In this document: positions 18,427 to 46,449 of the stretch, in pieces
How positions within the stretch are numbered: position 1 is the stretch's first letter
Layout of the letters: every line of letters starts with the position of its first letter
Program-made: the position numbers and the translations under genes
Virus record (IMG/VR): IMGVR_UViG_3300000285_000003
DNA length: 64,000 nt
Direction: 5' to 3' (one strand)
DNA from: a virus
Notes under the pieces: model-generated
The model's database searches: none
The model's input: the letters and a program-made list of their open reading frames with translations, nothing else
What the model was told of the DNA's origin: nothing

Positions 18427-18627
18427 CAACATTTCTGATGATAAGAAGAGCTACAGCTTGTGAAAGTAATAGCTCTGTCCGCCTGTGAAGGCCGATATTA
18501 TCTATGATGCACAGTTTACCTGGCATCAGATTTCATACGCGTGTACGCTACGTAAGTGCGGGTTTGAATAACCTAAAGTCCGAGCTTAGCATCTCCGTAA
18601 ACCGCTATACGTCCGTCAACGTAGACC

Positions 18628-18766: not shown

Positions 18767-18815
18767 GGCTAGATTGGATCCTTGCAAGGAAGCGGTTCGA
18801 ATCCGCACCTAGCCC
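18767..18815 (+). ncRNA. 49-nt mini tRNA-like element (acceptor, short hairpin, T arm) immediately upstream of a CDS
   Basis: GGCTAGA(18767-18773)/CCTAGCC(18808-18814) gives 6 bp. Then TTGGAT, hairpin TCCT-TGCA-AGGA and T arm GCGG-TTCGAAT-CCGC. Discriminator C18815. The primase ATG is at 18830. Confidence 0.4.
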
Positions 18816-18829
18816 CTAACTTATAAGTT

Positions 18830-22963: not shown

Positions 22964-23929
22964 TTATGGCTGAAAACTTCCACCAGCATCAAATGATCCG
23001 CCTCCAAAATCCTATCCGGCGTCAAACGATTCTTCCCCAAAAGAATCGTTGTCGTTGTTGTAGTCGTCAGGCATTACAGGTTCGCCAGAAGAACTTCCTG
23101 TAGAATCGTTTCCAAACAAATGTAAATACCAGTATTTATTTCTGTAGTAATTCTATTTAGCTCTCAATGTATTATAGTTGGCATCTTCGTACAAATTACT
23201 AAATGGAATCATCTTCATCATGTCTCTAAACCATCTGCTAGACCCTTTATATGCGCCAGACTTTACTGTGTCAGTAGGATTATGACCAGTAAGACCCATT
23301 GCGTCAAGCATGTAAGTGAATCCTGTTCCAAAGTCATTCCATACAGACTACAATGTTGTAATAGATCCCACAAAGTCAGCAACAGTTGTTGGGTCAAGAT
23401 TTGTACCTCTAGCCTCTGCAAGACGAAGTGATACCAAGTATAGATACTGTATCCACCACGACTTATCCTCATCAGCTTTCATCTTTAAGAATATAGAACC
23501 TAACGTAGCAGCTGCGCAGATAGCAATATCGGCAGACACTGCTTTAACACCTTCAATTTCAAGCTATGTTATACCTTTTAGTTTTTCTCTCTTTTCTTCG
23601 TATTCCTATTTCTTTGATTGATCGCTAGACAAAAGTGAACGTAATCCGTAAACCCAATTGGTTACATATCTCCTAACCAAGTTAGCTATAGATGTATAAT
23701 GCCCTCTTTCTATTTCTCCGGTTTCATAGTTATAATATCCGTAGCTCTAAGCCTCTTCAGCTGTCTTAGGATTCTTTACAGGAATTCCGTTTTCATCCAA
23801 TTCCTTTACGATGTAATCGTTTGCATTCTGCATTCTTTCATATATATTACCTACAATAAAGTTACGCATCATAAACATCATTGCAGTATACAGATTCTAT
23901 CTAGCCTTGGACACTTCTGTTGCAGGCAT
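22964..23929 (-). CDS. late hypothetical protein (TAG=Gln), acidic SFDAG-repeat C-terminus
   Basis: In frame 2 there is no TAA/TGA between 22967 and 23989. It holds 7 in-frame TAG and ends at TAA 22964-22966, followed by a second stop. The first ATG after the TAA at 23990 is 23927-23929. The start is uncertain. Confidence 0.55.
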
Positions 23930-23989
23930 GACACCATTATAAAAAGCAGTTCTTTGGGCAATTTTGTTCTTTACATTCTTGGCTATCTT

Positions 23990-26900
23990 GTTATTCAAAT
24001 ATTTTGCAAACGCCTTATTTACGGTTGGTAAATAATCACCAGGCTCCCAATCATATGCGTCGTATAGTGTTGTATGTAAGTCAGAATATACAGCCTTAGC
24101 CTACTTTTTTGTATATCCAGCGTCAGTAAATGCTTTTATAAGTTGATTACGAGTATAGAATCCAGGCTTAACTCCAGCATATGATGTATCTTCAAAAAGT
24201 CTAGTGTGATGATAAAATGACATCATTACTATAGAGTTATTCATATAATCACCGAGAGTATAACCTCCCATCATAAGGTATTTAAGACAAAATCTTCTGA
24301 ACCAACCTTTATGTAAACCTTCAAATATTTCAGAGTTATTCTTACTTATTTGATTCATCTGCATTAAGGCTCCTTCTTTAGTTGTTGGCTAGGATTTTCC
24401 TAATCCCCTAAAATTATTCATAATAGTTTTAGGACTCAGCAATTTAATTATAGCCCAGCCGAAGTCTTTCATAGTAAGATATTTACCTACGAGAGAATCC
24501 TTAAATATCTGTAAGTTTGCATCTAATGCACCAACAGTCATAGAAGCCGTGTTAAGACCAAGCATATGGATAGAGCCGTATCTTTTTGCCCTAGATATCA
24601 AGGCTCTTGCAGTATCGCTCTTCTCATTATTCTTAGTAAGACCTGATACTACATTCTTACCATAGAACTATGTTTCAAGAAGTGTGTTTATAGCTTCCTC
24701 GCTTCTCTGACTACTATACTTATCCATCTTCCTGAAATGCTTGTAAACATTTCCTGATCTAGAGCTTTTATATTTATCTTCTCTATATTCTGGATTAAGC
24801 TGTTTCTATATAGCAAGAATTTCCGGCAACAATTCCATTTTACCTTCATAATTCTTAGCCATATCTACAAACTGTATAACATTGCTACAGATAGACGAAC
24901 TTATATATTCTGGATTATCTAATCGCTTGACAAATCTAATAGGAACAGTACTTTCATCTTCTCCGCTAGGGGTAACTCTTTGTTTTGCACCCTTTACTTC
25001 GACATCTGTATCACTAGGCATTATACTTACCATAGATTTACATATATATCCAAACGTATCTTTAGCTGAATTAGGTCCTTTAACTACTCTTGATAATAGC
25101 ATAGCCGTAGTGCCTTCTATCTAAGGAAGCGCATTATTATAGCCAGATTTAATGGCTGGTATTTTTTCATACATTTGCTTCATTGTACTAGTAAGCATGT
25201 CATAAAGTGCTCTGATATCTGAGTTCTAATTTATCTCCTAGTCAAAGTATTTGTCCTTATATTTATCAGTAAGCTAATATCCTGGTTCTTTTCTCTAAAA
25301 ATCATACCTATCGTCATAAATTTTATTTGGCACAGCATTACTTCTCTTAGAAAATCTTCCAGTAGGTTTTAATATAACAGAATTGTATGTATAGCCATTA
25401 TAAACAAATGTGTTACTCTTTGGTGTTATTTCATAGAAGCAATCAAGAGGCTATGGACCTTTCTTGGTAGTCTTAAAGAAGAATCTATTGTCAATAAGAT
25501 ATCTTAAATCAGCATCAGAAAACGTTGTTATATCTTGGCCAAAGAACTGATTAAGTTCTCCATTCTTAGCTCTATCAAGATATTTGTCTCTAAAGAAGTC
25601 TAGTTTACTTTTGTTTAAGCCAGGCTGCATAGCAAGCCTATAAGTAAAGTACTTTCTAAAATCAGACTTCATTCCATTTTTACCAGAATCCTCTATATCT
25701 TGTTCAATCTGCTGTGCATTAGCAAAGAATGCTTCTGAGTCATGTGGTAATCTAGAGAAGTCTTTAGATATACTTCTGTTGTCTTTTGTCAAAGTAAGAA
25801 GACCACTCTACAGATACTTTAATACAGGATCATTATACTAAGACTGACCAACATTTGCAAGCTTATATAACAAAGGATTTATAGCTACTGTAGAATTAAG
25901 TCTTATAAACTAATCTCTCTTTACAGGATCTGTAATTGCATTAAGCTCTTGTACAAAAGCAGCATTATCCTAATCGTAATCAGTCTAATCAGATACCCAT
26001 TGATTGAATGATCTTAACTCTATAGCCATTCTATATTTATCATCTTCCTTCTTTTCTCCATTAGGATAGAATGGATTAGATAACTACTCGGCCTCTTCTT
26101 TTGCAAGCAAATAGGCTTTCTGCTACTCTGGAGACAGATCTTCGTAATGTACTGTTCCGTCTTTTCTTGTAGCCTGTTTTGCATAATATCTAAGATCTTC
26201 GTCTATTCTTTGCTTTTCTCTTATAGTATCTGGCGATAAACCATGACCATGAGGATTAGCAGGTATAGGGTCATTCTTAGTTTTAGGATAATATATAGGA
26301 GCAGAACGCATCTCTTGGTAGTATTTTCTAGTGTACTACTTTATTCTTCTACCATCATCAAATGCGTCCATCTCATCAAGGTATTTATAATATTTTGGCT
26401 TCTGCCATCCAGCTGGAGTATACTTCCATTTTTCCTGGTATACACTACAACCTGTCTATTTATCGATAAGCTCTCCAGTGTCTTCATCCTGCTCATAGCC
26501 ATACTTTTCCATCAAGCGCTATTGTTCTTCACGACGGTCCTGTTCATACTGTCCTTGATTGTACTCGGTTCTAAAATTACCTGTAGCCTTACCATCTTTA
26601 TTAAATTCCATCAAAACCATCTCTGGATTTCCTGGAACAAGCTTACTCATAGCTTTCCAAGCATTACGTCTGAGCGCATCTATTTGGTGACCAATATTGT
26701 TTACGAATACCTATCTATCATAATCGATATCGTTAACCTTATTGTACAATATTCTAAGTATAGGAGAACTAGATCTTCCATACATTCCTGCCCACATCTC
26801 AAGCCAGTTGATATCTCCATACATAGCTTGTCTGAGAAGCCAGTCCTCAGCAACAATCTTAGCATTCTCTATATTACCAAGACCCATGTTATCATCTATG

Positions 26901-28447
26901 TATTGATCTACAATACCGGTTGTAAGCGCATGTAGTGCATTTCTATATAATACAGAAATATCCTGCATAGATGCATTTATTTGATCTATATGAGTCTTTA
27001 ATATAACAGGGAAGTTACCGAACACCTTAGCTGAATTTATTTGGTTTAGCACCTCTTTAAAGAAGCCTATAGAGTTCTTATCTATATCTATGAGCTATTG
27101 GGCTGTAATACCTTTAAAGTTATTTTTTCTTGAATTCTCCAAGAACTTGTATATAGAACCATCTGTTATATTTCCGTTTTGGTCCATATAACCAATTCTA
27201 TCTACAACGTAGTTTACAAATGTACAAATAGCGTCATCATCAGACTGTCTCTACATTTTCTGCATAGTCTAGAATAGCTTGTCCTATATCTTTATCTACG
27301 ATGGCGTTTTTGAAACAATATGGTCATATGTATCAAATAGGTCCTACAGTCTTTGTATAGCCTCATCTTTGCTAAGTGTATTGTCAGCCATAAGCTAGAA
27401 CTTAGCTTTGTTCTCAAGTTTTACTTTGTTAAACTCTGCTGATACCTTAACCTAATTAATGTCTATATTAAGTAAGAACGACTATGCCAGATACTCGTGT
27501 AGCATCTCTTTGTTGGAGTCGTCTATAACTAGGTCTTTAAATGCATCTCTAACCTACGTATTAAACTACTCCCACACGTCAGCGGCCTTTGTACGCTCGG
27601 CAATATCATTAGCTTTGCCAACAAGTATATCTACAAGCTTTTCCTCTGCTTCTGTTATATTTTTTATCTTATACTGACTCATAATATCAGATAGAGCCTT
27701 TTGCACCATCTGCGAATTCTGAAACATATTAAGATAATGATGACATATCTCATGAGATTCAGTGTTAAGCTTTGCAGAACTTCTTCCGAATGCTACTTTA
27801 ATCACGTTGCCTATAGCACTAAGCTTATTAGATATGTACTAACCAGAAGCTTTTGCAACATCTTTTAACGATGTGCTACGTATGTAGTCTACAAACTATA
27901 TCTACAAATCTTTAGAAGATAAAAGTATATTGCCTTCCTTATCTACTGATTTTATAAGACCAAACGATTTCTCCAATCTATCTGCCAAAGTAGTATGCAA
28001 ACGTTCGTATTCTGCCTAATTCCAGGCCTCTGTAGCCTCTCTAAGAGTCTTGCCTTCCTACTACTAAGCAAGGATAAAATTATCCTTTCTAGAGCCATAA
28101 TTTTGAGCCATAGAGCTAAATGATTTAGCGTCAAACTACAATACTCCATTATAGTTATCTAAGTCATCTATTGTAGGCTCTACTCTATCCTGCGTCCAGT
28201 CATAATGATCTTCTATAAACTTTGACGTAAATATAGTAGCCTTCTCCAATATGGCTTTTTCTCTACTACCTCCATTACGCTGTAATAAATCCTTATACAG
28301 TGCGGAGTCTTTACCATTTAAATCCTTATCTAAAGGATATCCGTTGTTCTATGATAAGGCATAATAGGCAGCCTCTCGGCTACCTAAAATACCCTCATAT
28401 TCATTTAACAACGCTTCGTTTTCTTTATTTCTTAACAAACACGTCAT
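23990..28447 (-). CDS. large late/virion protein (about 1,485 aa, TAG=Gln) with zincin HExxH motif
   Basis: A frame-2 triplet scan found no TAA/TGA between 23993 and 28444, with about 41 in-frame TAG. The ATG at 28445-28447 is preceded by an in-frame TAA at 28457. The motif SHEICHH lies at 27740-27754. Seven track ORFs (24101...27805) share this frame. Confidence 0.75.
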
Positions 28448-28452
28448 AATAA

Positions 28453-31400
28453 TTATTTATTACAGTCGTCCTATCTTCTCTTTCCGAGTTCTTTAAGATC
28501 GTCTTTTATATCCTAATCATTTTTAACTTTATAAGAATCTTGTTTCTTTCTAAGTTCTTCTCTTACTTCCATAAGAAGTTTAGGGAATTCTTTACCCCAT
28601 TTACTGTTGTCTTGTACATGAGTTAGAGTAGCATTACCAGTACTGAGAAGTATTTGAAGAGCTTGTGGGTTTTGCTCAAATGATTCTTTTAACAATTGCT
28701 TCATAACAAAAGAAGATGATCTATCCCAAGCCTAAACATTTAAGTTTTTAATCTATCTTCCTAAAGATCTTAACTAAGAACCAGTTGTAGTGTCCATAAT
28801 TTCAGCCTATATAGACTTTCCACTCGGTCTAGTATTTCCATCATTAGATCTTGTGTCAGCAAATTCACTAGCCTTGATATACTAGAACGCCTATTCTACA
28901 GACTAGAAATCTTTAACTGATCCATCATTAAAATGATGAGTAAAAGGTCTAATTGCAAAATTGCTTAAATCAGCATTCTCGCCAGTTCCAGCATATATAT
29001 TAACAGTATTAGATGTTTGAGCAGTATTAAAAGTCTTCTAGTATACAGCCTTTATAGCATTAGCAGCCTTCAAAGCTTTATCGTATCCTACATAACCTTC
29101 TCTATCAACCCACTATCCGTTTTTATTAACTTTATAATTCTATATATTCCTAGTACCAACTCCAGCAAAAGATTTTGTTAATACAGGTGTATCTTCTACC
29201 TCGAATCTACCTGTAGATTGATTATACTAATACCAGCTTTCTGTATTCAAGTCGTATACATGTACAGGTTTACCCTATTTAATACCAACTTGTACTGCCA
29301 TATTAGTACCACCCTATACTGCTTTATATGAACTAGTTATATTAGCTATAGCAAATACGCCGTCAGACTTATCTACCTGATAAAAGTTTCTTGCAAGTAA
29401 TTCTCCGCCAACATCATAAGGAAGCTCCATTCCAGTTAACCGTTTTATCTATTCTCTTGCATAGTTAGATTGTTCATGAGTGATTGAGAATGGTTTAACA
29501 TTTCTATCTCTAAGAGTTTTAGACAACCTCTAATTGTCTGCAGGTCTAAAATGATTTATATTTGTCAAACCAAACTGTCTACCTATAACATCCCAATACG
29601 TATCGCCACCATAAGCTCCACCAGAGTTCATTGTGTAATTTTGCGGATTATTATACTTATTCTACAAAGCACTCTAGCTTTTTGGTAATTTTGTAAATAT
29701 AGGAATATTTATATCTTCACCTGCCTTTGTTTTAGCCGATCTTTCTCCAGTCTTTGTAAAACCAAGATCTGCAAATCTACTTAATCCATGTATTCCGCCC
29801 TTGGTAAGCTCTCCCCATGTTGATAGATTTGCTCCATCTGGAATTACGTCAGCAACAGCCTAGAATAGAATAGCTTTTTCTTCTTGAGTAAAAGCGTTAG
29901 GATTTTTACTATCAGTAGGCTTAAAGTGTACAGAATAGTTATTGTCTTCTAAGTCTTTAACAACCTCAAAATAACCTTTACTTTCCTTTCCTTTAAGATA
30001 TATTCTTCTAGTCTTATTCTATTTACTACTATCAGATTTCCACGGCTTAGCAACATCTTTTACAACTACGTTGTCTGAATACGTATTCTAGAAAGAGTCG
30101 GAATAATCGTTATGAGTGCTCTTGTGTTCTGTGCTAACATATTTTGCTAAATCCGCAGTTTTATCATACAGGTATTTAAATAACACAGGAGTACGTGCTT
30201 CTGTAATCTATGAGATTTTACCATTAGACAAACCTGTAGATGGGAGATAGATTTTTCTATATTTACCTGTATCCCACTCATCCTTAATAGCCTAAAACTC
30301 TGCATCTATAATCTTCTTGAAATCATCTATATCAGAATCATTCCATCTACCAGAATCTCTTGTTCTACCTGTTGAAGGATCGTACCAATGCTGTGTAGAT
30401 ACAGGCATAGCATTATCCATACCTCTAATTATAGCCGCTGTTGTATTAGGGAACATCTTACCTAATCCATAGGTCCTAGCGTACTTACTATCGTTGCTTA
30501 TAGGATTACTACCAGAAGTTCTATTTGTATTGTCTCCGAATACATATAACACATCAGGATTATCATTAACTTCCTATCTTGTCCAATTTCCTGGATGATA
30601 TTCAATCTTTCTCTCAGCCTATTTAGGTAAAGAAGGATTCTCTATATCTCCTGTATAAGGGTTAGATACAGGTACACTAGATATAACGATAGCAGTCTTT
30701 CTAGGTCTTGTTAAAGCGGTATAGATAAGCTCTGATTTCTCTTGGTTAGAAGTAGCTGTTGTACCCATTATATCCTTTTCGTCTACAACCACAATATCGT
30801 ATGTAGAGCCCTAAGATTTATGAGCAGTAATAGCATAACCAAAATCAACATCAGCATATCGTCCTTTGTATTCCCAGAAATCACTCCAAGCCTATTTCTT
30901 TAATGCTCTATTTGTCTATCTCTTAGCATAAGAAGCTAATTCCTATAATTTCTGATTATATAACCCAATATCATTTCTAGATACAACCTATATAACACAA
31001 TCTTTTTGTTCATTACCAGTTCTCGTATATGCTGTACCATTTGTCTCAAGATATAATGTATGAACTCCAAATTCATCAACATCTGTATCCTAAATACTCT
31101 TTATCTGTATTTCTGAAGAGTTTTCCATTGTAGCATTAACATCCGGTAAATCGTATGGAGAATTTAAGATAAGCATATCTCCCTTTGAATAATCTGAGTC
31201 CTTACCGAACAAAGCCTCGTGAATCTTCTGGTTTAATTCAGTCTTCTCGTTTACGTGATATGTTACAATCTTCACATGATTAGTAAGACCTTTTTCAACA
31301 GCGTTCTTAACAGCTTTGATTACTGAATTTAAAACTTCTCCTTCGCTGTTGGAGAATAATAAAGATCCCTTATCAGTAATCTGGTTATTTCTAACAATGT

Positions 31401-34400
31401 GTTGTGTAGGATTAAGCTCCGGGTTTTCTTTCTAAGAGTTCTCCCAGAAATAATCAGCATATGGTAATATTGGATTAGCTTCACCCTATCTAACTCTAGT
31501 AATAAGCTTAGACTTATGTTTACTATTAAATATGTCAGACTTTTTATTTAAAAGATCCTTATGAGTTCTATAGAATTCACTTTGTTCGTCTCTGATTGGC
31601 TATATCTGACCTATATCTCCCAAGAATAACATCTAGAATGGTCTAGAAAGACTAGAGTTTATATCAATGATCTTTTTGAGAACATCTTCTGTTATCATTG
31701 ATGCCTCATCTATAACAAGCAATGCTGGAGGATTGTCTAACAATGGAACTTTTAGACCTACCTGGAATTTAGTTGTCTATGTATCATTATCATTAATACC
31801 CTTCATTCCGAGTAAACCTGCTATACTAAAGAATTTCTTTCCTCTTGTATCGTCTCCAAAACTACTCTTTATTACACCCTTAGCTTTATGAGATACCGCT
31901 GCAACATATATCTGCTCATCTTCGAATTCTTTAAGAATTTCTTTAGCTATAGTAGTCTTACCTGTACCAGCTTTACCTTCGATAACATAATACTATGTAG
32001 GATCTGTGTTAGTCTTTAAGAACGATACGGCGTTCACTATAGCGCTTTGCTATTCTTTGTTGTAAGTAATTCCTCCAGACTTACCGGTTGATCTAACAGT
32101 GGTGACATCAGTATTCCTTACAGGAGATTCTGCTTTGGTTTCTTTCGGTTCTAGTTTCTTTGCGTTAATATAGAATTTCTATTTAACTTCTTCTACAAGT
32201 TTTGCATATTGAGCATCATTCTCTTGATAACCAATATAATTCATACCAAATCCAAAGTCGCTATTACCAAACTCAAATATATCATTGCCTTTAAAATGTA
32301 ATCCCTTCTTCTTACATAGTACATAAATCGGAACTTCTGTTAGGCTTACGTTTCCTGTATCTTTATCTTTGATTCCATTAAATTTACTAACTCCAACCAA
32401 TCTGTAAAGAGATCTATTTACATTATTGTTGTACTTATCAGACAACTCATCCTTTACAGTAATATATCTAGGGTATTGCCCATTATCAAGTCTATTGATA
32501 GTAGTGACATATTCTGAATTTTTGTCCAATGCATAGCCACATAAAGCAAATGGCTTCATTAACTATGGGTCATATATTCCAGAGTCAGTAAAATTCTTTC
32601 GGCCTTTTCGTTCATAATCGTACTGTGGTACAAAATCGGTATCATTCCAATTATTTCTAAGTATATCATCTATAATAGCCTCTCTTATGCTTGGCTCAAG
32701 ATTTGTATTAAACTTATTTAACCAGAACTCTACATGTCCAACAAATCCGCTATTAATCTTCCATGAGTTAGGAACATATTTAAAGAATCTGTTAAAACCA
32801 GATTTCTCACCAGATGTTAACCATGCGTAAACTACAAGATCTCTAGCAAACTCCTTTAACTCCTAATCGTCCGGATAATTAAGCAATTCTTCCCAAGCAT
32901 CAGTTAAGTCATCCTGGTTAAATGATGATTCTGATATACTGTGGAATGTACTAACAAACTTAGGAGCAGGATAAGTCTATCCATTAGCGCCTGTCGTTGA
33001 TTCATCTTTAACCTAATCTGATTCTACGAGCGATGTAAGCAGTTTGTTATTTCTTAAGTAGAACAATTTATCATCTGGATTGTTGATCCTACGCTTTATG
33101 CCAGCAAGCCTGTCAGCTATTGTATTGTTACCAAAGAATAATCTATTAACGTCTATCTTATTATTATCTTCTACTGCATAAGCTCTAATAAAGAGTGATT
33201 TAATACACTGTGAAACATTTCTATCTAACTTGTTGGCTATATCTTCTGTCTATGAATAATTGTTCATAAACTGACCAAGCTAACCAACTAATGAAGTATA
33301 AGATGTAGTAGCCTCAAATACCTATCCAGCAAGAATACTCTTCATTGCTTTCATAAATGAATTAGTCTTCTTATCAATCCAAGAATGTGTCATCATTTTC
33401 ATAACGCCTTCTGGTTCGAAAGATGTGTTACCTTGCTGAATATCCTTTAAGAACTAATCGTACTTCTCTTTATATAATAGCTATTTAGCAAGCGTATTTC
33501 CCTGCTTCTTTGTATCGATCTTAGTAAGCTGTACGAGTTTTGAGATATCATTTACAAATGGCTGTAATATATTCCATGCCTTATATACCTGCACCTAAGC
33601 TCTACAAAAATCTGGATCTTTTAACATATCCTCCTTATTAGTATATTTAAGAGCGTAATTCTTAAGATATTTTTCGCTATCAAACATACTATTTATTATT
33701 CTGATAGGAGAATTATTTTTTGCAGCATTCAATATGTGCTATTCCTTATCGAGCTATTTTTGTATTCCAATTCTAGCTTCATCGGATGTAGCTTCCTACA
33801 AATTGCTAGTAAGCATTCGTACCCTATCTTCGATCTAATCAATTTCATCCAAAGAATCGAGTCTTACGCTATTTATAAATCCTAATTCCCTTGTAACATC
33901 TTGACTATATAATTCATTTCCTTTACCAAGATAGCCAGCTATGTATTGCCTAAGAGCTTTCTCAGTAGCATCCTTCTAAGCTCTGTATTTACTCTTTGTT
34001 AAATCTCTACCATAGTGTCCACTAGCTGCTTCTGCAGCGAATGCCATATCCTTAATAATAGGCTACGTGATAAACCAAACGGAATTATCAGCCTAACCTG
34101 TTCTAACAAGGAAATTAAGCATATTATATGTAAAGCTATTTACGTTTATCTTTGATACATATGGATCCTTTACGATATCACAGTGAGCATTAATAAATGC
34201 TGACAGCCACGACATAACAGCATTACCATTCTTGTCATCACGTAAGTCTATACGTTTGAATGGTGTCTGCTTAGTAAATTCTGTCTCCTTTAATTTTACT
34301 CCGTAAGCCATAGTAAGAGCCTAATTTGTCACATTAAGAGCAAATGGTGCGATACCAAGCTTACCTGTAATATAATCTCTACGTCTATCTGTCTACTCGT

Positions 34401-37400
34401 GAAGTGTATAGAAATTGTATGGCAAAGTTTTAGTTGAACCAGCACTATCAAATTGATTAGCTATATTCTAAACAAGATCAGTATCGTTATCGATAGATCT
34501 CATAGCTATCTGTATAGAATTATCATTATCCTTAAGGAGTGTCATGTAATTCTCAAGAAGTTTGTTTTGATAATACTACTTCGTGCCTTTAGGGAATTCT
34601 CTAGTTGCTTTACTATCCTTAACGTCATATGCTAATGATGCAAGATAAAGTTTATCGATATCGAAGTCGGATCCAGTTACTTTGGTAAACTCTCTAGGAA
34701 GAATAATTGTATCTTTTACAACAGGAAGTACATCTACAAAGCGTAAAGCATGTATAGATGATTGAGCCTATGTAGGAATACGGTAACCAATAGTATTGGC
34801 TTTTACATCACTTCTGTTGCCTATAATCTTATTATCAAACAACCATTTTCTAGCCTAATCAAAAGACATGCCTTTTGGTATTATATGCTCAAAATAGTCT
34901 ATAGATATAACAGCGTCCATACTGCCATCATTATTGATAAACTGAAGCTGTTTTCCTTCATTAAGAGTCTACCAATTAATGATCTTTCTAGCTGCTGCAG
35001 GTAACGTATCGTACTCATCATCTGATACGATATGTCCCTCCATAGCGAATACAGATCTCTGATAGAATGCGTTTCCTGGAGTCTTAACATCTACAATCCT
35101 CTTATTAAGAGCAGATGTAAGAATACTCTCTATCCAGTGTGGATCAGACTGAGCAGCAAGCGGTACATTTAAGTGTTTGCTACCATCTGCATCAACCTTA
35201 ATAGTAATAGCGTCAATTGTATTCTTGTTAGCATTTCTTGACGTAAGCTCATCATTTAAGAATTTAGCGAACTTTTGTATATCAAACTCTCCATCAGTAA
35301 AGAACAAATCATCTACTTCTTTAACTCCCATATCGGAAAGCTAGTTTATAGAATCCATGATATTATCAAGAATCTAAGATCCAGATATAGCTTCGCCTGT
35401 AAGAGAATCTGTATAGTTAACTCTATCAATAATTAAACTGGCAAGTGCTACCTTAGCAGTCTATGTACCAAGATTCATCTCAATCTTTCCATTAGGGTCG
35501 GTATTAAGCTACTTTCTAAGATATCTAAGATCCTATTTGAATGTAACAAATGGCTCTTCTATACCTTTACCCTGTTCAAATTTAGAGTTATGCTTGTTAC
35601 CAATCTTTACAGCAGAATCAAACAAAAGCATATCTACGCCTTCGTTTATCATCTTATTGTATACCTTGCCCATATCTCCCATTGCGATAGATGGGAATAT
35701 AGGGAACAATGCCATCTTATTATAATAAGGTATAAGTAGACTGCCAAGTCGTTCATCATTTCTGTGTCCAAATGCACTATACTTCTGAGCTCCAACAATA
35801 AATTCCTAAAGCTCTGTAAACGCATCTGCCTTCTATCTGAATGTATACTGCTTATTTGGGTCTCTAAGCATAGCAAACAGCTATTTGGCTTTATTGCTAT
35901 ATAATCCAAGAGACCTTAAAAGCTTTTCACACATCTTATCTGTAATGAATGCAGATCCATCTGCTACATTTATAGGGTCTTTAGCTTTAGGATCATATAT
36001 CTTTCCAGCATAAGCTTTATATTCTGCTTGATATTTCTTAGTAACTCTAGCCTTGTCGTTTTCGTCAAGATATTTGTCTCTAAACTCTTCGAAATCTTTT
36101 TGTGTTTTATGTTCTGCGTAAGCTATATCTGCTGCCTCTTTCTTACTTTTACCACTACGCACAAGTTTGTTGTATACAGCTTCTTTTGTATTAGCTTGCA
36201 CAAACATCTTTTCGACACTATTCTGGTAAGCGTCATCAATGTTACCATCGTGCATCTTGTCAGCTTCAGAAGAGACCATAAAATCATCAACCTGCGCACA
36301 TGTGTACTTCGATTCAGAGTCATCCTGGAAGTCGGTTCTAGGGTTAGCTCCGGTAGAAATAAGTCCTCCAAGACGTTTTAACTGGTCAGTTTGTCTATCT
36401 TCTAGCTCGTTCTCACTATACTACCATTTATAGAATGCAGGGTGACCACCAAATAGTCTTTCTACTTCTTGTACAGAAATAATAGATCTTGTAGAAACAT
36501 CTGACATCATTGCTACAACTGCCGCAGCATTCAGCTATTCAATAGTTTTAATACCTTCTGTTCCAGCTAACGAATGCCTAATACAGCTAAACTCATTGTA
36601 GCTTAGACCAACATTCTCTAATGAATAATAGTTGTCTACATCGCCTTTAATGAGCCCTAATTTTATAGCCTTCTTAACTTCTTCTTTAAACTGAATATCA
36701 AGAACTCTAGCCATAATATTTCTCTATTGTTCTCTACTCTTATTAAAGAACTATTCATCAGCTAATTTCAGGCAGTCTATACTACTCTTTTTAGGATCAT
36801 TAAACTTTATTCTGTTGCCATTGTCATCAAGTATGGATGTAAGTGACGAGAATCTTGTACCATTAGGCTCTACCTTTACTGTTTCACCTTTACTGTTTAC
36901 ATACTTATTAGGCGTATGATAATTCTTTATCTTTACAGTATCATCTATAGCTGTATCACCTTCAAAGTATCCAAGCTGATGCATACATTCAAGTATAGCT
37001 GCCTTTTCATCCTTAGCGTAGTCTATAAATATATCCAAAACCTAATCAGATGGTCTTACTATAGTCTTACCAGTTGTATCTGTAACTATTCTAGGGAGTG
37101 CTCCAAGTAACTCTTTTCTAAGAGCTGATTTTTGATCTTTATCAGAACTAGATATAAGTTTATTTATCAGCCTATAATCTATACCAGGAATCAAAAATCC
37201 GTTAATAGCTTGATCCGAAGCCTGTAAATACATATATGTCTTTTTATCAGACATTGTAGGATAAATCAATCCTCCGCTAATAAGCATTGTAACCTTAGAC
37301 ATGTAATCCTCTATATTTGAAACCTAGTTATAATCGGATCCGTAGTCGTCATTCTGATCAGTCTTAAATCCGGCATAGTTATTCATAAGAATCTTCGCCA

Positions 37401-40400
37401 TCTTATTTCCTTCGTTCTGAGCAATCCTTCTAAGGACTATTGAGTGCTTATTATAACAGAAATTCTAGATTCTCTACTTAGCTTCATTATTAGGATTTTC
37501 GTCCTATATATCAGCAAGTATATCTGATACTGTATTATTCTCTCCCTGTGTATATGCCTTGTTATTATTGGTTAAGAGGTTCATCATCTCATTCTTAACC
37601 TTGTTATTCATAGACTGATACTTAGCAAGCTCATTTACAAATGAATCTTTATTATATAATGTATCAAGCTATACTTCAACCTATCCAGCATTTCCTATTA
37701 CAGAATCAAGAAGGTTCAAAAATTTACTCAAACTTACAAGAACTGTTTCGTTAAGCATCTATCTAAATGAATCGGCACTAAACTCTCCGTACTTATTAAT
37801 AAGCATATAGTTAATGGTATCGCTGTCAATCTATATACCTATCTTATTAAGTGTTATAGTAATCTTATCTATAACTTCAGACAACTATGCAGGGCTTGTA
37901 ATGTCATATGTATTGTTACCTATCTTTATGTCATTTCCAGCATTTGCCTAAGTCCATATTGATTTAATCCAGTTTGATGTACGTTTAAATATATCCTTTC
38001 CAGGAGCATTGTATACTACACCGTTCTTGTCTCTATTGAATAATATTCTACCTTCCTAATCTTTCATTGTAGATACAACTCCAGTAACGCCATTAGCTAA
38101 TCTCTTTGACCAATCCTGTGAAAACTTAAGTGTGTCCCTATCAACTGATAAGTTTGACATTCTTATACTTACATTTCCATCTTTGTCTGTAGAAGACCTA
38201 GTCATCATAAAGTTATATTTCTGACCAACCAATGCCTGGAATACTTGTGTTACAACAGCCTCTGCGTTATAGTTGATTCCTTCTCCGGTTGTCTTATCAT
38301 AATCTATGTATTGAGCCTAGAAATACTCATCAAACGTAGAGTATACATAGAAGAACATAGGGTCCTATGAAGCGAGTCTAGCTAATTCGTCATGGAGTTC
38401 TTGAACAGTCTTTACATTGTGAAGCTATTCGAACATCTTACTAAATACTTCAGTCTAAGGCATAAATCTAGGATCACCAAACAAGCTGTGTGATGTATCA
38501 AGTTCAATGCCTTCTTCATGATTATTGGCATTAGCCCACTTAACATATGGTACAGTTCCAAAGAAGAATTTAGCTTTTTGAGATACGCTTTGCAGCTTAC
38601 TCATTTCGTAAGACTCCTTGCCAACATAATCCATATAAGCTCCAGCAGAACCAGCTTCAAGCTGTTCCTACATATCTTCGTCATTAGTATTTCTAACAAC
38701 ACCTTCTTTGCTTATGTTAGCAATCTTAGCATACACTCTATCGGCTATAACAGCAAAGTTTGGATAATACTATTCCTTTCCTATAGCTACTCCATTTTTA
38801 TCAGTTATATACTTCTCTTTGCCTTGCTTAAATATTTCCTGGAATGCTTTAGCCTAAGCTTCTGGTACCGGAACTTCTGGATCTTCACCCATAAGCTATT
38901 TCATCATATCTACACCGATAAGCTTTTTAATATTTGTACCAGTAATTGTAAGTTGATCTATATTATCTCCAACAGCATTAACTCTTCCTTCTTCGAGAGC
39001 CTTCTCTACTATATAAAAAGCTATAGTTTCAACGCAATCGTTGAGCTGCTCGTTGTTTAAGATATTTTCGAAGCTATGCTTCATACCAGTCTTCTGATTG
39101 TAAACATCATAATGAAGAGAATCGCCAAACTTAGCTTTAAAACGCTCAAGGTTTTCTTTACGTATATTGCTTCCTGCTTTTGTTTTGTACCAGCCAGTAG
39201 ACATTATTGCTGACAAAAGTGTAAGTCTAATACTTCCGAGATCCCTAGCAAATTGTACACCGGCTTTAATCTTCTAGAAAAGAGCTACTACCTTATTATT
39301 GGAAAACTCATTATCATCGTAGTTGTTTTGAGCATCCATATACAGATTTGCTAATCCTTCTGCAATCTCTGTATCAGACATCTTATCATTACCTTCTCTA
39401 CTCTTATACCAATCGTATATCTTCTGTCTTTCAGATGGTCTTAGCAACAGCTCCAATACTCTATGGAATGCTTCGTGATACTGCACACCGTCTACAACTC
39501 TATTACCAATGTAAACCATGTCTGACATACATTTTCCGGCAACAGCCATGTCTGCAGGTATATCGTCATTTAACTATTTACCTATCTCATAGTTACCTTC
39601 ACCTATAACGCGCTTTAAATACGCATTCATTTGCTCTCTATCACCATCTGTTATATCTCTAAGCTTATTAGGCTAAACCTCTAATTTTAGTCCTCTAGAT
39701 CGATTTAAAAGATTTTTGAGAGAGTTTAATCTAGGCATTGAGATTGAATCTTCTTTTTGCCGCTCAGTGAGTATATCGTCTATACGATCATCTTGTTTTG
39801 TATTAGGAACCAAATATGGGCCTCTAAAATAAGTGGCAGTATAATTCTAACCGACAACAGATGTCTAAGTGTACTGATGGCGCATAAGGTAACCAGCGTA
39901 TGTACTCTTTCTTCTTTCATTTCCATCCTGGTCAAAGAAATCATCTCTGCTAAACTCTAAGCCATTTGGAGCAACAAATGTATCAACATTAGGGTTATCT
40001 TCAAAGTAATGCTTTACGTTGTTTATAACAGAGTTGTTTGTAAAGTTAAGCTATTGACTAAGCATAGTCTTTTCGAAAGCAACACCAACAGATCTTAAAT
40101 CTGTTCTGAGTCTCTCTAAGTCATGCTCACTTGTAAGATCGTATGATTCTCCAGTTCCATATATATGCTTACCATTGTCGTCGTACTGAGGTAATCCTAT
40201 AATAATCTATTTGTTTGAAGAGAATGTTATAGTTCTAGTCTGATTTGTTTTATAGTTAGGCTAATTATTTTCATTAACATGTACAAGCATCTTAATAAGA
40301 TCATATGTATTGTATCCGTTATAATTAACCTATCCCTAAGCATAAGCTCTTAATAAGTCTACAAGAGAATCAGCTTGATTCTAAGAAAGCTTAGACTGAT

Positions 40401-43400
40401 ACAGTATAACTGGAATTGTAGTCTAGTTACCTTTCTTCTCATCGAAGTTTGTATGCCATAAATATACAGTAGAACCTACTGATGTATTCTGTGTTCCAAC
40501 CCTAGCACTATTTAAAGTATGTATAGGACTATTTAAGCCATCAAGACTCATTACGTTCATATTACCTTTCTTGTCCTATTTTACTATACCAATCTATTTG
40601 CTCTTAAGGTCAATAGAATACGTATCATCAAGACTCATTATGTTTCCAACAACAGAATGTAAACCCTCTACTGTTGGAGAGTTTTCATTATAACCAACAA
40701 ATGCAGGATCATAAATAAGCGATCCATTTGTTCTTGTAGGTATAACTCTTAATGAGTAATTCTTATGCTTCTAGCAGAACTTCCATAAATCGACGAGATG
40801 CTGCTGATATCCCATTCTACTTTCGTCACCACCTTCATATATGTGCAATTCTATAGACTGTCCTTTGTATGTAATTCTTAAGTAAGGTCTATTGCTGTAC
40901 TCTGTAGCATTTCTGAATATAATCTCAAACTTACCGTTAGTAATAAAGTCTGGCTAATTACTCCACTCTACATAAGTCTTGTTTTCCTACATGGCTTTTA
41001 CTCCAGGTCTATGTAATGTTGTTCCAACGCCTTGACCAGAGATATAATTATTACCACCAGATTCATACCACATAAACTCCTGCTTATTAAGCTCTTCTGA
41101 TTCTCTAATTATGGAAGCGTCTGTGTCAATGTATGAGTCATCAAGTTGCTTTCCATACTTGTTAGCAAAGCCAGATATAAGCAATCTACCTCTATTAATA
41201 TTGTCCTAAAGGACAGGATTCATAGGGTTATCTGGATTCTGTTCAATATAATCTTGAGCATTATTAAGCAACATTCCGAAGTAGTTCTTAAGTAACCTCC
41301 AATACCAATCAGATTCAACTTCACCAAGATTCTGTTGGAATTTATTTCCATACAGTCTCATGTAATCTGTTATCTTCTGATTATAATCAAGTGTAAGATT
41401 ATCACTTCCATTTGTGATTGTGTTTCTACTATCTCTTGGAAGTACTACGTTGCCTTTTGCATACTTAGTAAACCACCAATCAAGTATTTCTTCGCTAGTG
41501 TCTCCCCATATAGATCTATTGTTATTAAACTTCATAATAACATTATCTATGAGGTCTCTCTCCTAAGAAACATTTACAGCCTAAGCTTCATTATCCTGCA
41601 ACAGATTATCAAGGGCTATTTCTGCTCTCATTAACTGTATAGACAAATCGTTTATAGCGTCTCTTTCTGGCTATGTAGTAGGTTTTACATCAGCTATTGT
41701 GCTAGATATTGAGTCAAGTGTATTGCAAGCATCTTCCAACTCGAGGACTAACTATGCTACAGTCTTTGGAAGATCATTATAGTCTGTTACGAGCGGATCC
41801 TGTGGAATTTCTTTCTAGTCGTTAAGATTGTTTAACTAGTCAGTAAGATCGTTGTATACCTAGTTTGTGTTCTGTATTATGTTACCAAGCTGCTTTATAG
41901 CGTCTTTTAACTAGTCTTCAGTTGCAAGCTTATCTATATCCAGTATATACTGTGATATACTCGTCTTATCAAATGGAGTTAACGACTAATCTGCAATCTT
42001 CTGTATAGCTGATTCAATATTGTCTATGTTAGACAGATTCTGTTTTACCTGCTGTACTAGCTTGTCTACATTTTGCTTAAGCTGCTCAGTCTGATCTGTC
42101 TTGTCATTTTTAAGATAATTCTAAACACTTCCAACACTAAGAACATTCTCTTCTGAATCAAGATTCTCAGCAACAGTGCCAGCCTATTCTTTAGATTTAC
42201 TAAGATATACATATGATAACATTCCGCTTAAATCTGGAATATCCATAGCATCTAATGGCATATCTTTAATATCATCAAGAAATGTCTTAAACGAATAATA
42301 TCCCTACTATGTACCATAGGCAACAAGTTTTGCAAGAGTTGATAAAAACTTAGGGCTTATACCAGAATAAGCTTCACCAGATCTAGCCCACTCCTTGATA
42401 GCAGCTTTCATCTTAGACTTGAGAAGTCGTTTCTTAGCCTCTATCTTAGCTCTTCTTTCATTTCTCTCTTGTCTTTGTTCAGAAAGATTATTAAGCCTTT
42501 CAAAGGAATCTGCTAATTCGTCATCAGGTTTAGATTTATCTACAATTGCTCTATTAGGTTCCAATCCTGCATTAAGAAGCTAATCATTGATATAATCTTC
42601 GATTATTCTAGCATTGTCTTCATTTCTGGTAATAATGTTCTTATATCTCTTAGAAGACTATAGCCATCTATTTATTTTATCATAGCTTCTACCTCTAAGG
42701 ATCATGTCATCAATCTTGCCCTTGAGTTTTCCTACGGAGCCAAGCTTGTCTTCTTTTATCTTGAGTTCAAGATCATCATGAACATAAGGTCTATCTGTAT
42801 TCTCAAAAGTATTATTTTCTACAGAATAATTGTTTTCCGGAGTATATACTTTATTTTCCTACTTTGTAAGAGATTCTACATGAGACTATGTATCTTTGTG
42901 CTCTGTATTTATTTCTCCAGTAGAAGTATTGTCCTGGTTCCACTTTTGTCCATAAGGATCATTAATAGCATCTGCTAAAGCCCAATCTATTGCCTTATTT
43001 CTCTCTGTGGTAGCCATGACGTCGTCTATGAACTTACTGAATTTAGTGTTACCATTTCCTTCAGCTTTTAGACCATCGGAGAACATCTTCTATCTATCCG
43101 CTATAAGATTTGCGTCTGCATTAAGAAGAGCTCTTACTCTTGTATTCTCCTCTATGTCATCAGAGAACTACTCAATAGCTCCCATGGCGTCAAGCTTATC
43201 CATTACTTGTGCATCATTAAGGCCATCAAGATTGATACCAGACAGCTCAGACAGTCTCTGAGAGATAATCTTTATATCACTATCTATAGACTTGTGTATT
43301 TTAGCAGCATCTTCTCTTATAGTATGCAATCCAAACTTATCTCTAAGCATATTGAAAAATCCGTCAGAAGTCTTGCAATCTGATCTAAGCTTAAGCAAGC

Positions 43401-46400
43401 CTCTAAGCTATCCTACAAGTATAGTTCTTTGACGAAGATCCTCAACGTTGCTTATTCCGGTAGGACCTGTCATTCTATTGAGCTTATCCTATTCAGACTG
43501 TGCTGATATCAAATCTACTTCCTAGCCTAATTCCTCAAGAGACTAAGCATTCTGCTCTGCTTCTTGTCTAGCCTTATCAGCTCTCTGCTAAGCAAGACTC
43601 TCTATAGATGATCCACTCTATCTTCTTCTTAATTCCTCATCAATAGCTTGATTAAGCTGTACCGAATGTATAATCTAATTATATTCATCTATAGCCTTCT
43701 GTCTCTAATCTCTGTTCTCGTCAGAATTCTAACCAGTCTAATATACAGATGCTACAGCTGCAGCATATTTATCTGTACCATATTGTATGCCATGCTTCTC
43801 CATTATAGCCTTAGTAGTAGGGCTTAATGTCATTCTCATTATGTCCTATGCCGCTTTTATTGAGGAGTCCCACTCATCGCTTGAGTAAGTATGCTCCTTT
43901 CTTCTAGCGTCCTCCTATTTAAGCTATTGCATAGTATTTAAGATCTACTCCATATTAGATCTACCTTTCATGGCTTCTTTTGCAAACAGCTGTCCCTAAG
44001 CTCGTTCATTTTGCATCATTATACGATTGGTAATACCGGCATTAAGTATTGCCTAATCTGCTGATATCTGACGTACAAGTCCAGGTATTTCCGATACAGC
44101 TCTCATCGCAACGGTATGACCGCCTCCAAGAGCAAATCCTCCTTTATAATTCTACCAGAACTCTTCATTGTCAAGGAGATCGCTATCTCCTATTCCTAAT
44201 TCAGCTAATATGGCGGCCTGTGTTCTTGAGCCTGCGCTATATTCATTTGCAAACAAACTACCTAGGCTAGGAAGCTCTCCAAGGCCCATCTGCTGCCTTT
44301 TAGCCTGCTCTGCATTAACATACTGTCTGGCTTCTTCTGCAGCCTCAGAGGCTGAAGAAACAGCCCAAACCTTACCCATTTTTAAGCCGTATGCAGAAAG
44401 TCTTCTTGCTGTCAATGGTATCTTATCCAAGATGTCTTGATAGTACTATCCTGCTCTATGTGTAGCAAGTCTAATAAATGCCTAACCTCTGGTTGGTAAA
44501 GCTTTTTTAGCCTAATCTAATACAGCCTTTCCAATACCTGTCATAGTACCATACACATACTAACCGGTCATACCATGTCCTAATACTGTAGCAGTCTGTT
44601 CTCCTAATCCAAATCCGCCTCTAAAGCTATCTGTGAACTCCTTTCTAAGAGTTGCGTATCTACTACCGTTTACGGCGTCTTTAGCTGCTTCTGCAGCAGC
44701 ATTTGTAGCTGCTCCTTCAACTGTATGCTCTATAGCGCCCGTAGCAGAATTAGCTGCACGTTTAATAGTTTTATTCGCAATCCAGTTTATGGTTCCTTTT
44801 CCAGCTTTGTATAGCTCTCTTCCAAATATACCAACCTGTAAACCCTTCTGTACCATAAGATCTGATCCTGTTGTTATGTTATCTTTCTGGAAAAGGGCAT
44901 TACTTCCAGCAAGTGCTCTAAGCTCAGCCTTTCTGTATTCTGGATGGTTAGAAGTTATAATGCCGGATAATGCACTGCGAAGTATCTCGTCATCGCTTTC
45001 TGTATCTGGATTCATGTTCAGTTTCGGATATGCCTATTTAGCCTTTTCTCTCAAGTCTTTTATTATATCCTGGTACTGTTTCTTGCCACCAGACATTAAG
45101 TTTGATTTAAGCTTATCAACATTAGCATCGCTAACTTCGCCCCTATTCTCAAACTTCATGTTCTCTATATCAAGACCTGTGGCAGTAGTCGCTACCTATG
45201 AGCCAATGTTTAACAAGGCTTGTCCTTTTGGTCCTAAGAACGCACCACCAATAGCAGCTCCAGTATTCAATGCCATAGCTATTCTTCCGGCAGTAGAAGC
45301 GTTAGAAGCAGCTATCTGAGAAGGCATTTCGTACTGCCAGTATTCTGGTGAGAATACACTAGCATTAGCGTATCTCTACTTTTTCTTATTGTAATCGTCG
45401 CTAATTGGGAACCACTTCTCGTCAGCCTGTCTGTACCTTACATGCTTTTCATAATCCTCTTGAGCTCCCTTTATTTCAGCATTAAGCTGAGTCTGGAAAT
45501 CTGTATAGTCATCAATCTGTGCTCTAAGTGAGTCTTTTAAAGGTAAGCCCTAGAATCTCTTTCTGTTGTTATCTATATTCTTGTCATATATATACTAGTG
45601 TGCAGCCTAAGAGAACTTTTCTTTATCATTCATCTTAAGTGTTTTATAATCCTAGTTGTTATGCGCACCATAAGCATTAGATGTATTAAGATAAGCTCCA
45701 GCCTTACCTAATACGTCTAAAAGGAATCCACCTGCACCAGCTAATCCCTCTTTGACTGAGTTCCATACATTATCCATGTCGTGCTGAGCTCGGAGCTGTT
45801 CAGCTCTCTGCTCATACACTTCACCATTGTTTATCTGTTTATCAAGCTATTTAATCTGACTATTTATTCTAATAATGTTCTATTTATCTCTATTTGATAA
45901 GTTAGCCCTATTATTAGAGTAGTCTTGTAATTGCTGCTAAAGTTGTAATCTCTACAACTTTAACTCTTTATTCTTCTTAGCTAAATCAACTGTTGCCGAA
46001 GTTTCCTTATTCAGCATTACTTTACCAGAAGCGTTACTCGCCCTTACCTGATCAGTAGATCTGAATATATCTCCAAGCATTTCCTTGCCTATCGCTGTAA
46101 AATCAAATCCAGGATTCTAAGGTCTAAACAATGGGCGCTCCATAGCAAGCTCATCGTTCACTTCCTTAGCCTTTTTTAATTTATTGTACGTATCAGATAG
46201 GTTTCTAGTTTCACGCTCCTCTCTATTAAGCGATTTGGATACATTTACATAATCTTTGTATCCATTATTTACAACTCGTTGAACAGGAGATGTGCTCTGA
46301 TATCTAGCTAAGTTGCTTCTAAATCTATTTGTAACCCTACTGTACGGCGTACTATTATTACGTCTTATGTACCCGATAGGATCATAAGTACTGCCTTCGG

Positions 46401-46449
46401 ATCCCCATGGGATTATACTAGGACTTACGTTCCTTGTTCTGTTTGCCAT
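28453..46449 (-). CDS. giant multidomain virion protein, 5,998 codons if all TAG are read through (RNAP-type DFDID motif, HExxH, SF1 helicase, NADAR-like domain)
   Basis: A frame-1 triplet scan of every sequence line found no TAA/TGA between 28456 and 46458, with about 166 in-frame TAG. ATG at 46447-46449 and TAA at 28453-28455. Twenty track ORFs (28513...46449) all sit in this one frame. Whether this is one polypeptide or several cannot be decided from sequence. Confidence 0.75.
28530..29010 (-). other. NADAR (YbiA/DUF1768)-like domain at the C-terminus of the giant protein
   Basis: Translation reads NIYAGTGENADLSNFAIRPFTHHFNDGSVKDF-Q-SVE-Q-AF-Q-YIKA ... FEQNPQALQILLSTGNATLTH...WGKEFPKLLMEVREEL. 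This follows the LSNF / xVEhxFQxxK / Tg...L.E / WG...LG.iLm.vR pattern of the family. Three of the Q residues are TAG. Confidence 0.6.
30700..32060 (-). other. RecD/Dda-like SF1 helicase domain inside the giant protein
   Basis: The Q-motif region is YNKE-Q-QSAI. Walker A EGKAGTGKTT at 31951-31977 and Walker B LLVIDEASM at 31696-31722. Motif V is AITAHKS-Q-GSTYD, with the Q encoded by TAG 30811-30813. Confidence 0.8.
34654..34668 (-). other. DxDxD metal-binding signature (DFDID) of a double-psi-beta-barrel RNA polymerase-like domain
   Basis: The context is KVTGSDFDIDKLYLAS. It is analogous to NADFDGD of beta-prime. As far as I recall, it also matches the catalytic motif of the virion RNAP of crAss-like phages. 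Confidence 0.55.
39463..39477 (-). other. HExxH zincin metallopeptidase signature (HEAFH) inside the giant protein
   Basis: The context is VVDGVQYHEAFHRVLELLLRP. Confidence 0.45.

Follow-up and report, generated by a model that had tools for sequence, protein, structure and literature searches.

A reading frame of 5,998 codons in a crAss-like phage probably encodes a giant virion RNA polymerase polyprotein with a variable C-terminus

How can 18 kb of DNA be free of TAA and TGA in one frame and hold 166 TAG codons in the same frame, and what would be made from it? This question is raised by positions 28453-46449, minus strand, of a 64,000-nucleotide stretch of the IMG/VR virus record IMGVR_UViG_3300000285_000003, which was analyzed in full and is referred to here as the window. 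Homology points to a crAss-like phage of the Suoliviridae type (Crassvirales) as its source. We find it highly probable that the frame is a single late gene, read with genetic code 15, whose product is a virion-RNA-polymerase polyprotein of about 6,000 residues. From N- to C-terminus this chain would consist of a module like gp47 of phage crAss001 with a HEAFH...E motif, an RNA polymerase (RNAP) of the type of crAss001 gp50 and phi14:2 gp66, a superfamily 1 (SF1) helicase, DUF7831, an unassigned segment, a SLOG domain, a NADAR domain and a tail of 29 residues.

Re-translation gave an open reading frame (ORF) of 17,997 nucleotides, or 5,999 codons including the terminal TAA. It runs from an ATG at 46449-46447 to the TAA at 28455-28453 and specifies 5,998 residues (about 679 kDa) with its TAG codons read as glutamine. 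There is no TGA in frame, the only TAA is the terminal one, and TAG occurs exactly 166 times. A preliminary description of this locus, made from the letters of the sequence, had reported such a frame from 46447-46449 to 28453-28455 with about 166 TAG codons and had argued that the whole stretch must be coding. Our translation found no stop that it had missed, and the coding claim holds on two further grounds. From the base composition of the strand, TAA or TGA is expected about every 17 codons, so that 5,998 codons with neither have a probability of about 1e-157; the other two minus-strand frames over the same interval contain 243 and 698 TAA and TGA codons combined. The second ground is selective constraint. 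Comparison with the relative L007 (88% identical) gave a ratio of nonsynonymous to synonymous substitution rates (dN/dS) between 0.018 and 0.052 for every one of the eleven 500-codon tiles into which residues 321-5447 were divided, with dN of 0.03-0.08 and synonymous sites saturated (dS 1.3-2.2). Over this range the proteins encoded by five IMG/VR contigs of about 103 kb share 88-93% identity with that of the window and show no large insertions or deletions. The closest upstream in-frame TAA lies 3 codons ahead of the ATG, and in five related contigs the same ATG is kept, again with an in-frame stop a short way upstream. Positions 28453-46449 are one uninterrupted coding frame under purifying selection.

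Such a frame could in principle be something other than one gene, such as adjacent genes joined by an assembly or sequencing error, a gene containing an intron or intein, or a shadow of real genes on the opposite strand. Group I introns do occur inside this gene in related genomes, the C-terminal part of the gene is frameshifted in contig L008, and under the standard code several plus-strand ORFs of 150-250 codons overlap the giant ORF (for example 44564-45319 and 38494-39060). However, the five relatives, which were assembled independently, are collinear with the window and share its start, and an Rfam scan identified no intron in the window. One coding sequence is found at this position in nine annotated Suoliviridae genomes, and with dN/dS as low as 0.02-0.05 throughout, neither a non-coding insert nor an overlapping antisense gene can be accommodated. 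Because constraint on the minus frame is strong along its whole length, the overlapping plus-strand ORFs are not credible genes and were ruled out. We regard this family of explanations as extremely improbable.

The preliminary description had proposed a comparison with related genomes, and there the region proved collinear and encoded as one coding sequence, with interruptions in three cases. In cr131_1 (L004) and L010 the gene is interrupted by a group I intron (Rfam RF00028). The intron of L010 (10853-11688) sits exactly at the codons of the DFDID active site of the polymerase module, and that of cr131_1 (23741-24653) holds a 242-residue ORF, a putative homing endonuclease whose annotation derives from similarity to gp17 of Salmonella phage PVP-SE1. 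In L008 a frameshift at about 15828-15907, within a DUF1848 cassette, splits the giant ORF, and SLOG and NADAR appear as a separate ORF of 705 codons. We rejected a separate SLOG-NADAR gene in this contig, since the split is a frameshift inside the cassette and no gene boundary; the frameshift itself may stem from faulty assembly, or it may be genuine or programmed.

The reading of TAG was examined by codon comparison. Opposite 135 of the window TAGs, four close relatives carry 351 TAG, 87 CAG and 54 CAA codons (492 of 540 comparisons), together with 12 gaps, and no other codon occurs more than 7 times. In the other direction, a CAA or CAG of the window faces TAG in these four relatives 102 times. 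When distant homologues are aligned, the residues facing TAG follow the same profile as those facing CAA and CAG, with glutamine first. TAG is the commonest glutamine codon of the giant ORF, at 166 occurrences against 107 CAG and 72 CAA. Metaproteomics has shown TAG to be translated as glutamine in crAss-like phages (PMC9523058). These alignments show that TAG means glutamine (genetic code 15) in this gene. A suppressor tRNA with the anticodon CUA was identified in two close relatives, L019 (211-282, minus strand) and L022 (725-796, minus strand), about 9.2-9.7 kb upstream of the position that matches base 1 of the window and hence outside it. Its D and T arms nearly match tRNA-Gln(UUG) of cr130_1, and a tRNA of this type is the likely decoder of the 166 TAGs.

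The distribution of TAG over the window is strongly asymmetric. On the minus strand from 22964 to 64000, eleven tightly packed ORFs appear once TAG is read through, each with 4-166 in-frame TAGs and each terminating in TAA or TGA; under the standard code these right-hand 41 kb contain almost no long ORFs. The 20 plus-strand ORFs at 114-22947 contain no in-frame TAG and end in TAA (16), TGA (3) or TAG (1). They make up the replication side, with a DnaB-like helicase and an extracytoplasmic function (ECF) sigma factor identified by Pfam; further members, recognised from their annotated homologues in cr130_1, are a primase, a RecA-like ATPase and an exonuclease. The GC skew changes sign at about 22-23 kb. 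In TAG-recoded crAss-like phages early genes are readable in both codes and late genes only in code 15 (PMC7886860, PMC9523058), and the layout of the window matches that description.

With so many recoded codons in one gene, it is conceivable that a subset of them serve as leaky or regulated stops and yield a programmed nested set of N-terminal products, as the preliminary description had suggested. Any inefficiency would compound, since full-length yield scales as p^166, where p is the read-through per codon (0.99^166 = 0.19 and 0.95^166 = 0.0002), and premature stops are plausible and could dominate early in the code switch. In addition, 37 window TAGs are invariant across the window and its four close relatives. 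However, the TAGs are evenly spread along the ORF, at 6-20 per 500 codons with a longest TAG-free run of 179 codons, and the invariant ones are scattered, many of them within domains (codon 3865 in the RNAP core, 4891, 4939 and 4988 in the helicase, 5292 and 5386 in DUF7831). TAGs close to module junctions (4757, 4800 and 5277) are CAA or CAG in relatives, and we therefore rejected the conserved TAGs as candidate regulated stops. TAG exchanges freely with CAG and CAA among close relatives, and the base that follows it resembles the base that follows CAA and CAG. Furthermore, the standard-code relatives cr118_1 (4,946 residues) and cr10_1 (4,460 residues) hold the whole homologous protein in a single ORF with no TAG, which indicates that the fusion is a property of the protein and not of the recoding. 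The suggestion of regulated stops is thus left unsupported, and we consider it improbable. The yield calculation still implies that truncated products will build up unless reassignment is close to complete.

A gene for transfer-messenger RNA (tmRNA) of the permuted, two-piece type was detected at 2374-2609 on the plus strand (Rfam RF04321, 63 bits against a gathering threshold of 47). ARAGORN agrees and gives the tag as DNVNNIVDYTNVA; a near-identical tag is conserved in six of six related contigs (L014, L018, L019, L022, L024 and L038). A tmRNA in a stop-recoding phage might be related to rescue of ribosomes at unsuppressed TAGs. A text search of the literature returned no obvious description of tmRNA for crAss-like phages.

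Within the giant protein the preliminary description had pointed to four signatures: an HExxH motif, a DxDxD motif of the kind found in RNAP catalytic centers, a complete RecD/Dda-like helicase and a C-terminal NADAR-like domain. All four withstood closer analysis, and the positions it gave hold, among them those of the two short motifs (39463-39477 and 34654-34668). The predicted virion RNAP module occupies approximately residues 2430-4750 (32200-39162, minus strand), with limits extrapolated from alignments to PDB entry 6VR4 and to gp50, and carries DFDID at residues 3928-3932 (34654-34668). A phmmer search of the PDB matched 6VR4 chain A, the polymerase gp66 of phage phi14:2, in two stretches (E 1e-17). 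Here TGSDFDIDKLY (residues 3925-3935) aligns with TGSDFDIDKMY of gp66, which holds the catalytic residues 1361-DFDID-1365. Residues 1163-1802 of crAss001 gp50 match residues 3590-4136 of the giant protein (E 3e-11), with SGSDFDVDKLY as the corresponding motif. By tblastn 111 phage records match the giant ORF and the best relatives are Suoliviridae; a megablast search of 50,697 phage records with the 18-kb ORF as query gave no match, and the relatives are detectable at the protein level only.

The polymerase module is followed by a Dda/RecD-like SF1 helicase (residues 4750-5257; 30679-32202, minus strand). It is assigned to PHROG 325, 'Dda-like helicase' (E 5.9e-68), and to Pfam AAA_30 (50.2 bits, cutoff 27) and UvrD_C_2 (42 bits, cutoff 27.4). 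Motifs I, II, III, V and VI can be read as GKAGTGKT, VIDEASM, GDIGQIQP, AITAHKSQGST and YTALTR, with the Walker A motif GKAGTGKT at residues 4825-4832 (31954-31977).

The N-terminal module (residues 1-2240; 39730-46449, minus strand) has no recognised domain. No Pfam or PHROGs family was found above threshold in it, and PHROGs gave no family within the first 4,000 residues. It is homologous only to the giant proteins of Oafivirinae (residues 155-1847, 24-26% identity) and weakly to that of cr118_1. No sequence match was found between it and the body of crAss001 gp47; we treat it as the counterpart of that body solely from its position N-terminal to a shared HEAFH block. This block (residues 2240-2400; 39250-39732, minus strand) contains the sole HExxH of the giant protein, HEAFH at residues 2325-2329 (39463-39477). 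Across nine sequences, drawn from four Suoliviridae subfamilies and crAss001 gp47 (Steigviridae), H2325, E2326, the alanine, H2329 and a glutamate 35 residues past the second histidine (E2364, 39358-39360) are invariant. Residues 2105-2207 of crAss001 gp47 match residues 2273-2373 of the giant protein (E 1e-5). HEAFH...E has the appearance of a zincin signature, and the block is a putative metallopeptidase. A word-indexed protein search with the HExxH region gave 0 matches.

Phage crAss001 provides the closest guide to what these modules do separately. Its gp47 has the same single HEAFH near the C-terminus, its gp50 corresponds to the polymerase module, and its gp49 corresponds to the next gene of the window (22964-28456, minus strand), which encodes 1,827 residues with 48 in-frame TAGs and matches gp49 (E 4e-5) as well as cr130_1 gp80 (E 8e-87). 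Mass spectrometry has found all three crAss001 proteins in virions, and they are regarded as capsid cargo (PMC10172136). In crAss001, however, they are the products of three separate genes, read in the standard code, with gp47 on the strand opposite to gp49 and gp50, and they lack helicase, SLOG or NADAR fusions, whereas the window joins the counterparts of gp47 and gp50 in one chain. By homology, the giant ORF is a fusion of these two with four or five extra domains, and the gp49 homologue would be a third RNAP-associated cargo protein that is unfused here. The claim that one chain combines functions which are separate in characterised crAss-like phages is therefore upheld by comparison, as gp47 and gp50 homologues are joined in collinear single coding sequences.

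The second well-studied relative, gp66 of phi14:2 (PDB 6VR4), shares the catalytic DFDID and its TGSDFDIDK flanks; it differs in being a stand-alone protein of 2,180 residues with its zincin-protease neighbor gp65 encoded by a separate gene, and beyond the catalytic region the two proteins are too dissimilar to be aligned by the tools used. It is packaged in the virion and transcribes early genes, and its translocation into the host was inferred from rifampicin-resistant early transcription (10.1101/2020.03.07.982082). From phi14:2 gp66 and crAss001 gp47, gp49 and gp50 it seems fairly safe to expect late expression of the giant protein, its presence in the capsid as cargo, its ejection and early transcription by the DFDID module. 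Synthesis would take place late, once an amber-suppressor tRNA-Gln permits read-through. The product would then be packaged into the capsid and, before or together with the DNA, ejected into the host, where the polymerase module would transcribe early genes. For the zincin-like domain, possible tasks are to divide the chain into functional parts or to switch on the polymerase. At entry, nucleic-acid and counter-defence functions may fall to the helicase, SLOG and NADAR domains; NADAR, for instance, could remove DarT-type ADP-ribose from DNA.

Several points weigh against this picture of a virion-delivered polyprotein or parts of it. Virion location, injection and product size are carried over from homologues rather than from this phage, and the roles of the helicase, DUF7831, SLOG and NADAR are predicted from family membership only. 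No amber suppressor tRNA was found within the 64-kb window, and some truncated products are likely unless TAG reassignment is nearly complete. For the HExxH block, a profile search of the PDB returned only the HEAGH region of FtsH at a sub-threshold E of about 0.5, and a Pfam scan gave nothing. A single-sequence AlphaFold model of a 99-residue TAG-free piece with HEAFH reached a predicted local distance difference test score (pLDDT) of only 64 and had no Foldseek match, and no conclusion was drawn from it.

If the polyprotein is made, it could be cut afterwards, by its own zincin-like domain or by a host protease, into separate proteins like those of crAss001. The invariance of HEAFH...E from Suoliviridae to crAss001 gp47 is consistent with such cleavage, as is the fact that the modules are separate genes in crAss001, and Iyer et al. 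predicted autoproteolytic domain release by metallopeptidases for polyvalent proteins (PMC5512222). On the other hand, no cleavage sites can be read in the sequence, the peptidase fold was not confirmed by PDB profile search or by AlphaFold and Foldseek, and the N4 virion RNAP, which also has a metallopeptidase domain, is packaged unprocessed (PMC5512222). Granted the polyprotein, we consider cleavage a serious possibility that falls somewhat short of an even chance. It concerns the post-translational fate only and is compatible with all of our results.

Polyvalent proteins are the more general concept to which the giant protein may be compared. They were described in 2017 by Iyer, Burroughs, Anand, de Souza and Aravind, for phages and conjugative elements, as multidomain proteins delivered by the virion, and include a virion RNAP fused to an HExxH peptidase (PMC5512222). 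The giant protein resembles them in being one huge chain with unrelated enzymes (polymerase, HExxH peptidase, helicase and nucleotide-processing domains), encoded among virion genes, with variable accessory domains and with predicted delivery together with the DNA. The N4 virion RNAP, however, is T7-like, whereas the polymerase of the window is predicted to be of the two-barrel crAss/QDE-1 type. The survey of polyvalent proteins contains no mention of crAss-like phages (PMC5512222). Membership in this class is a matter of architecture and not of common descent.

Giant genes of this kind have been known for the family, which the preliminary description missed. A 'single huge polyprotein' has already appeared in the literature, and a 2023 review gives an RNA polymerase gene of 'up to ~6000 aa'; both the giant virion-RNAP polyproteins and the recoding of TAG to Gln are established features that mark these phages. 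A single coding sequence is annotated in RefSeq or GenBank at this position in all nine Suoliviridae genomes inspected, from four subfamilies, with lengths of 4,272-6,386 residues (split in cr131_1). The longest are cr272_1 gp23 (YP_010113476; 6,386 residues, 37 TAG) and cr130_1 gp79 (YP_010113266; 5,801 residues, 74 TAG). They are followed by the TAG-free cr118_1 protein, those of cr50_1 (4,774 residues) and cr52_1 (4,464 residues), the TAG-free cr10_1 protein, and those of cr109_1 (4,328 residues, 70 TAG) and cr114_1 (4,272 residues, 69 TAG). In cr131_1 the intron with its homing-endonuclease-like ORF divides the protein into 4,372 and 1,401 residues (53 and 11 TAG).

Gene order around the giant ORF is the same as in cr130_1, whose primase and RecA-like ATPase are 71-72% identical to those of the window. 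The giant genes of cr130_1 and cr272_1 occupy the same slot, between cargo-like genes of about 500-700 residues and the gp49-like gene, and face the exonuclease/ATPase/primase block. Their proteins share a collinear core (residues 155-4738, 24-33% identity), TAG recoding and C-terminal domains of the DUF7831, SLOG and NADAR types. They differ from the protein of the window in having no helicase, in another order of the C-terminal domains, and in TAG density, which is 2-5 times higher in the window gene (166 versus 74 and 37). In a tblastn search of phage records, the best-conserved part of the RNAP is about 39% identical to its closest database relatives, which suggests a different genus or subfamily and a new lineage. 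As a discovery of a giant gene, the present one adds little to the homologues of 5,801 and 6,386 residues already in RefSeq.

Standard-code gene calling shatters this gene, and protein catalogues hide the family as a result. In a catalogue of 5.8 billion proteins, the RNAP core as query gave 142 matches; the best 120 of the 142 are all fragments of 275-844 residues without Pfam annotation, and one of these 120 (323 residues) is 100% identical to the protein of the window. Being products of standard-code gene calling, such fragments are useless as a guide to architecture and were set aside.

The region downstream of the helicase is a series of smaller domains. DUF7831 (residues 5287-5429; 30163-30591, minus strand) was identified by Pfam PF25176 (40.9 bits, cutoff 27) and is 49% identical to residues 5418-5577 of cr130_1 gp79, where the domain order differs. 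It is followed by a segment of 148 residues (5448-5595; 29665-30108, minus strand) for which Pfam gave no family and which is absent from L006, L007 and L010. Next comes a SLOG/DprA-like, Rossmann-type domain (residues 5602-5747; 29209-29646, minus strand) with the motif SGGAYGGD, assigned to PHROG 768, 'DprA-like DNA recombination-mediator protein' (E 4.7e-12), and conserved in L006-L010 and cr130_1. The NADAR domain (residues 5823-5977; 28519-28983, minus strand) scored 57.5 bits for Pfam PF08719 (cutoff 35.1) and E 1.2e-20 for PHROG 1017; in the PDB it matched E. coli YbiA (2B3W, E 0.004) and NADAR 8BAU (E 0.085). The last 29 residues (5970-5998; 28453-28540; KKQDSYKVKNDQDIKDDLKELGKRRQDDCNK) are retained by every relative regardless of the cassettes in front of them, and this tail may be a packaging or interaction signal.

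Beyond residue 5447 the composition of the protein differs among phages whose cores (residues ~321-5447) are about 88-93% identical. In L006 and L010 the core continues directly into SLOG and then into the last 29 residues, and L007 has a DUF1848 domain (Pfam E 6e-24) inserted ahead of SLOG. L008 has the frameshifted DUF1848, another segment, SLOG and NADAR, and the window has its unique 148-residue segment, SLOG and NADAR. NADAR is missing as a clean in-frame block from L006, L007 and L010, where SLOG joins the tail directly. In more distant relatives the same C-terminal domains occur in shuffled order, and the helicase is gained or lost.

One explanation is that the region after residue 5447 is a rapidly exchanged in-frame array of counter-defence enzymes (the unassigned segment, DUF1848, SLOG and NADAR) that is injected together with the polymerase. 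Enzymes delivered in this way would be in the host before any phage gene is expressed, and may strip DarT-type ADP-ribose from the incoming DNA or destroy immune signals derived from ADP-ribose. NADAR enzymes of other phages (AdfN) have been shown to strip DarT1 ADP-ribose from DNA and defeat DarTG1 (PMC11825919), and fusions of SLOG with NADAR, an architecture already described in viruses, are predicted to act on derivatives of ADP-ribose (PMC9503650). The window resembles these systems in having a NADAR domain, above the Pfam cutoff, directly downstream of SLOG. However, AdfN and the viral SLOG-NADAR proteins are stand-alone or two-domain proteins, whereas the pair in the window forms the C-terminus of a polyprotein of about 6,000 residues, with an activity predicted from sequence. 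We put this explanation forward tentatively and with more doubt than belief. The variable, cassette-like C-terminus is, together with the demand that 166 TAGs place on suppression, the less ordinary part of the gene.

Some other features of the window were recorded. A tRNA of 104 nucleotides at 18657-18760 (plus strand; Rfam 40.9 bits) has an insertion of about 31-35 nucleotides beside the anticodon loop and no CUA anticodon. It was missed by ARAGORN at default settings and called as tRNA-Ile(GAU) when introns were allowed. Its site corresponds by synteny to that of the tRNA-Leu/tRNA-Gln pair in cr130_1, and fragments resembling a T-arm and acceptor lie nearby at 18396-18430 and 18767-18816. 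A low-scoring 'tRNA-Stop(tta)' call at about 18305-18427 was disregarded. Positions 1-51 (plus strand) are the 3' part of a tRNA with the anticodon CAU (Met) that is cut by the window edge and complete in relatives (for example L014, 9633-9707). The ECF-type sigma-70 factor (3672-4250, plus strand; Pfam Sigma70_r2 and r4_2) lies among standard-code genes and would fit middle or late transcription that depends on the host RNAP. In a region of about 2.6 kb (6232-8873) the plus strand contains no ORF of at least 150 codons under three codes; the only ORF there is one of 210 codons on the minus strand (7113-7742) with 3 TAGs. Hydropathy scanning by the Kyte-Doolittle method gave no convincing transmembrane segment in the giant protein.

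For the biology of these phages, the presence of 166 TAGs in a single ORF sets a constraint on the code switch, as read-through per codon has to be well above 99% for a useful yield of the full-length protein. The close relatives that differ by whole in-frame C-terminal domains constitute a testable system for counter-defence enzymes as virion cargo, and among these domains is a NADAR, of a type that in other phages has been shown to defeat DarTG1.

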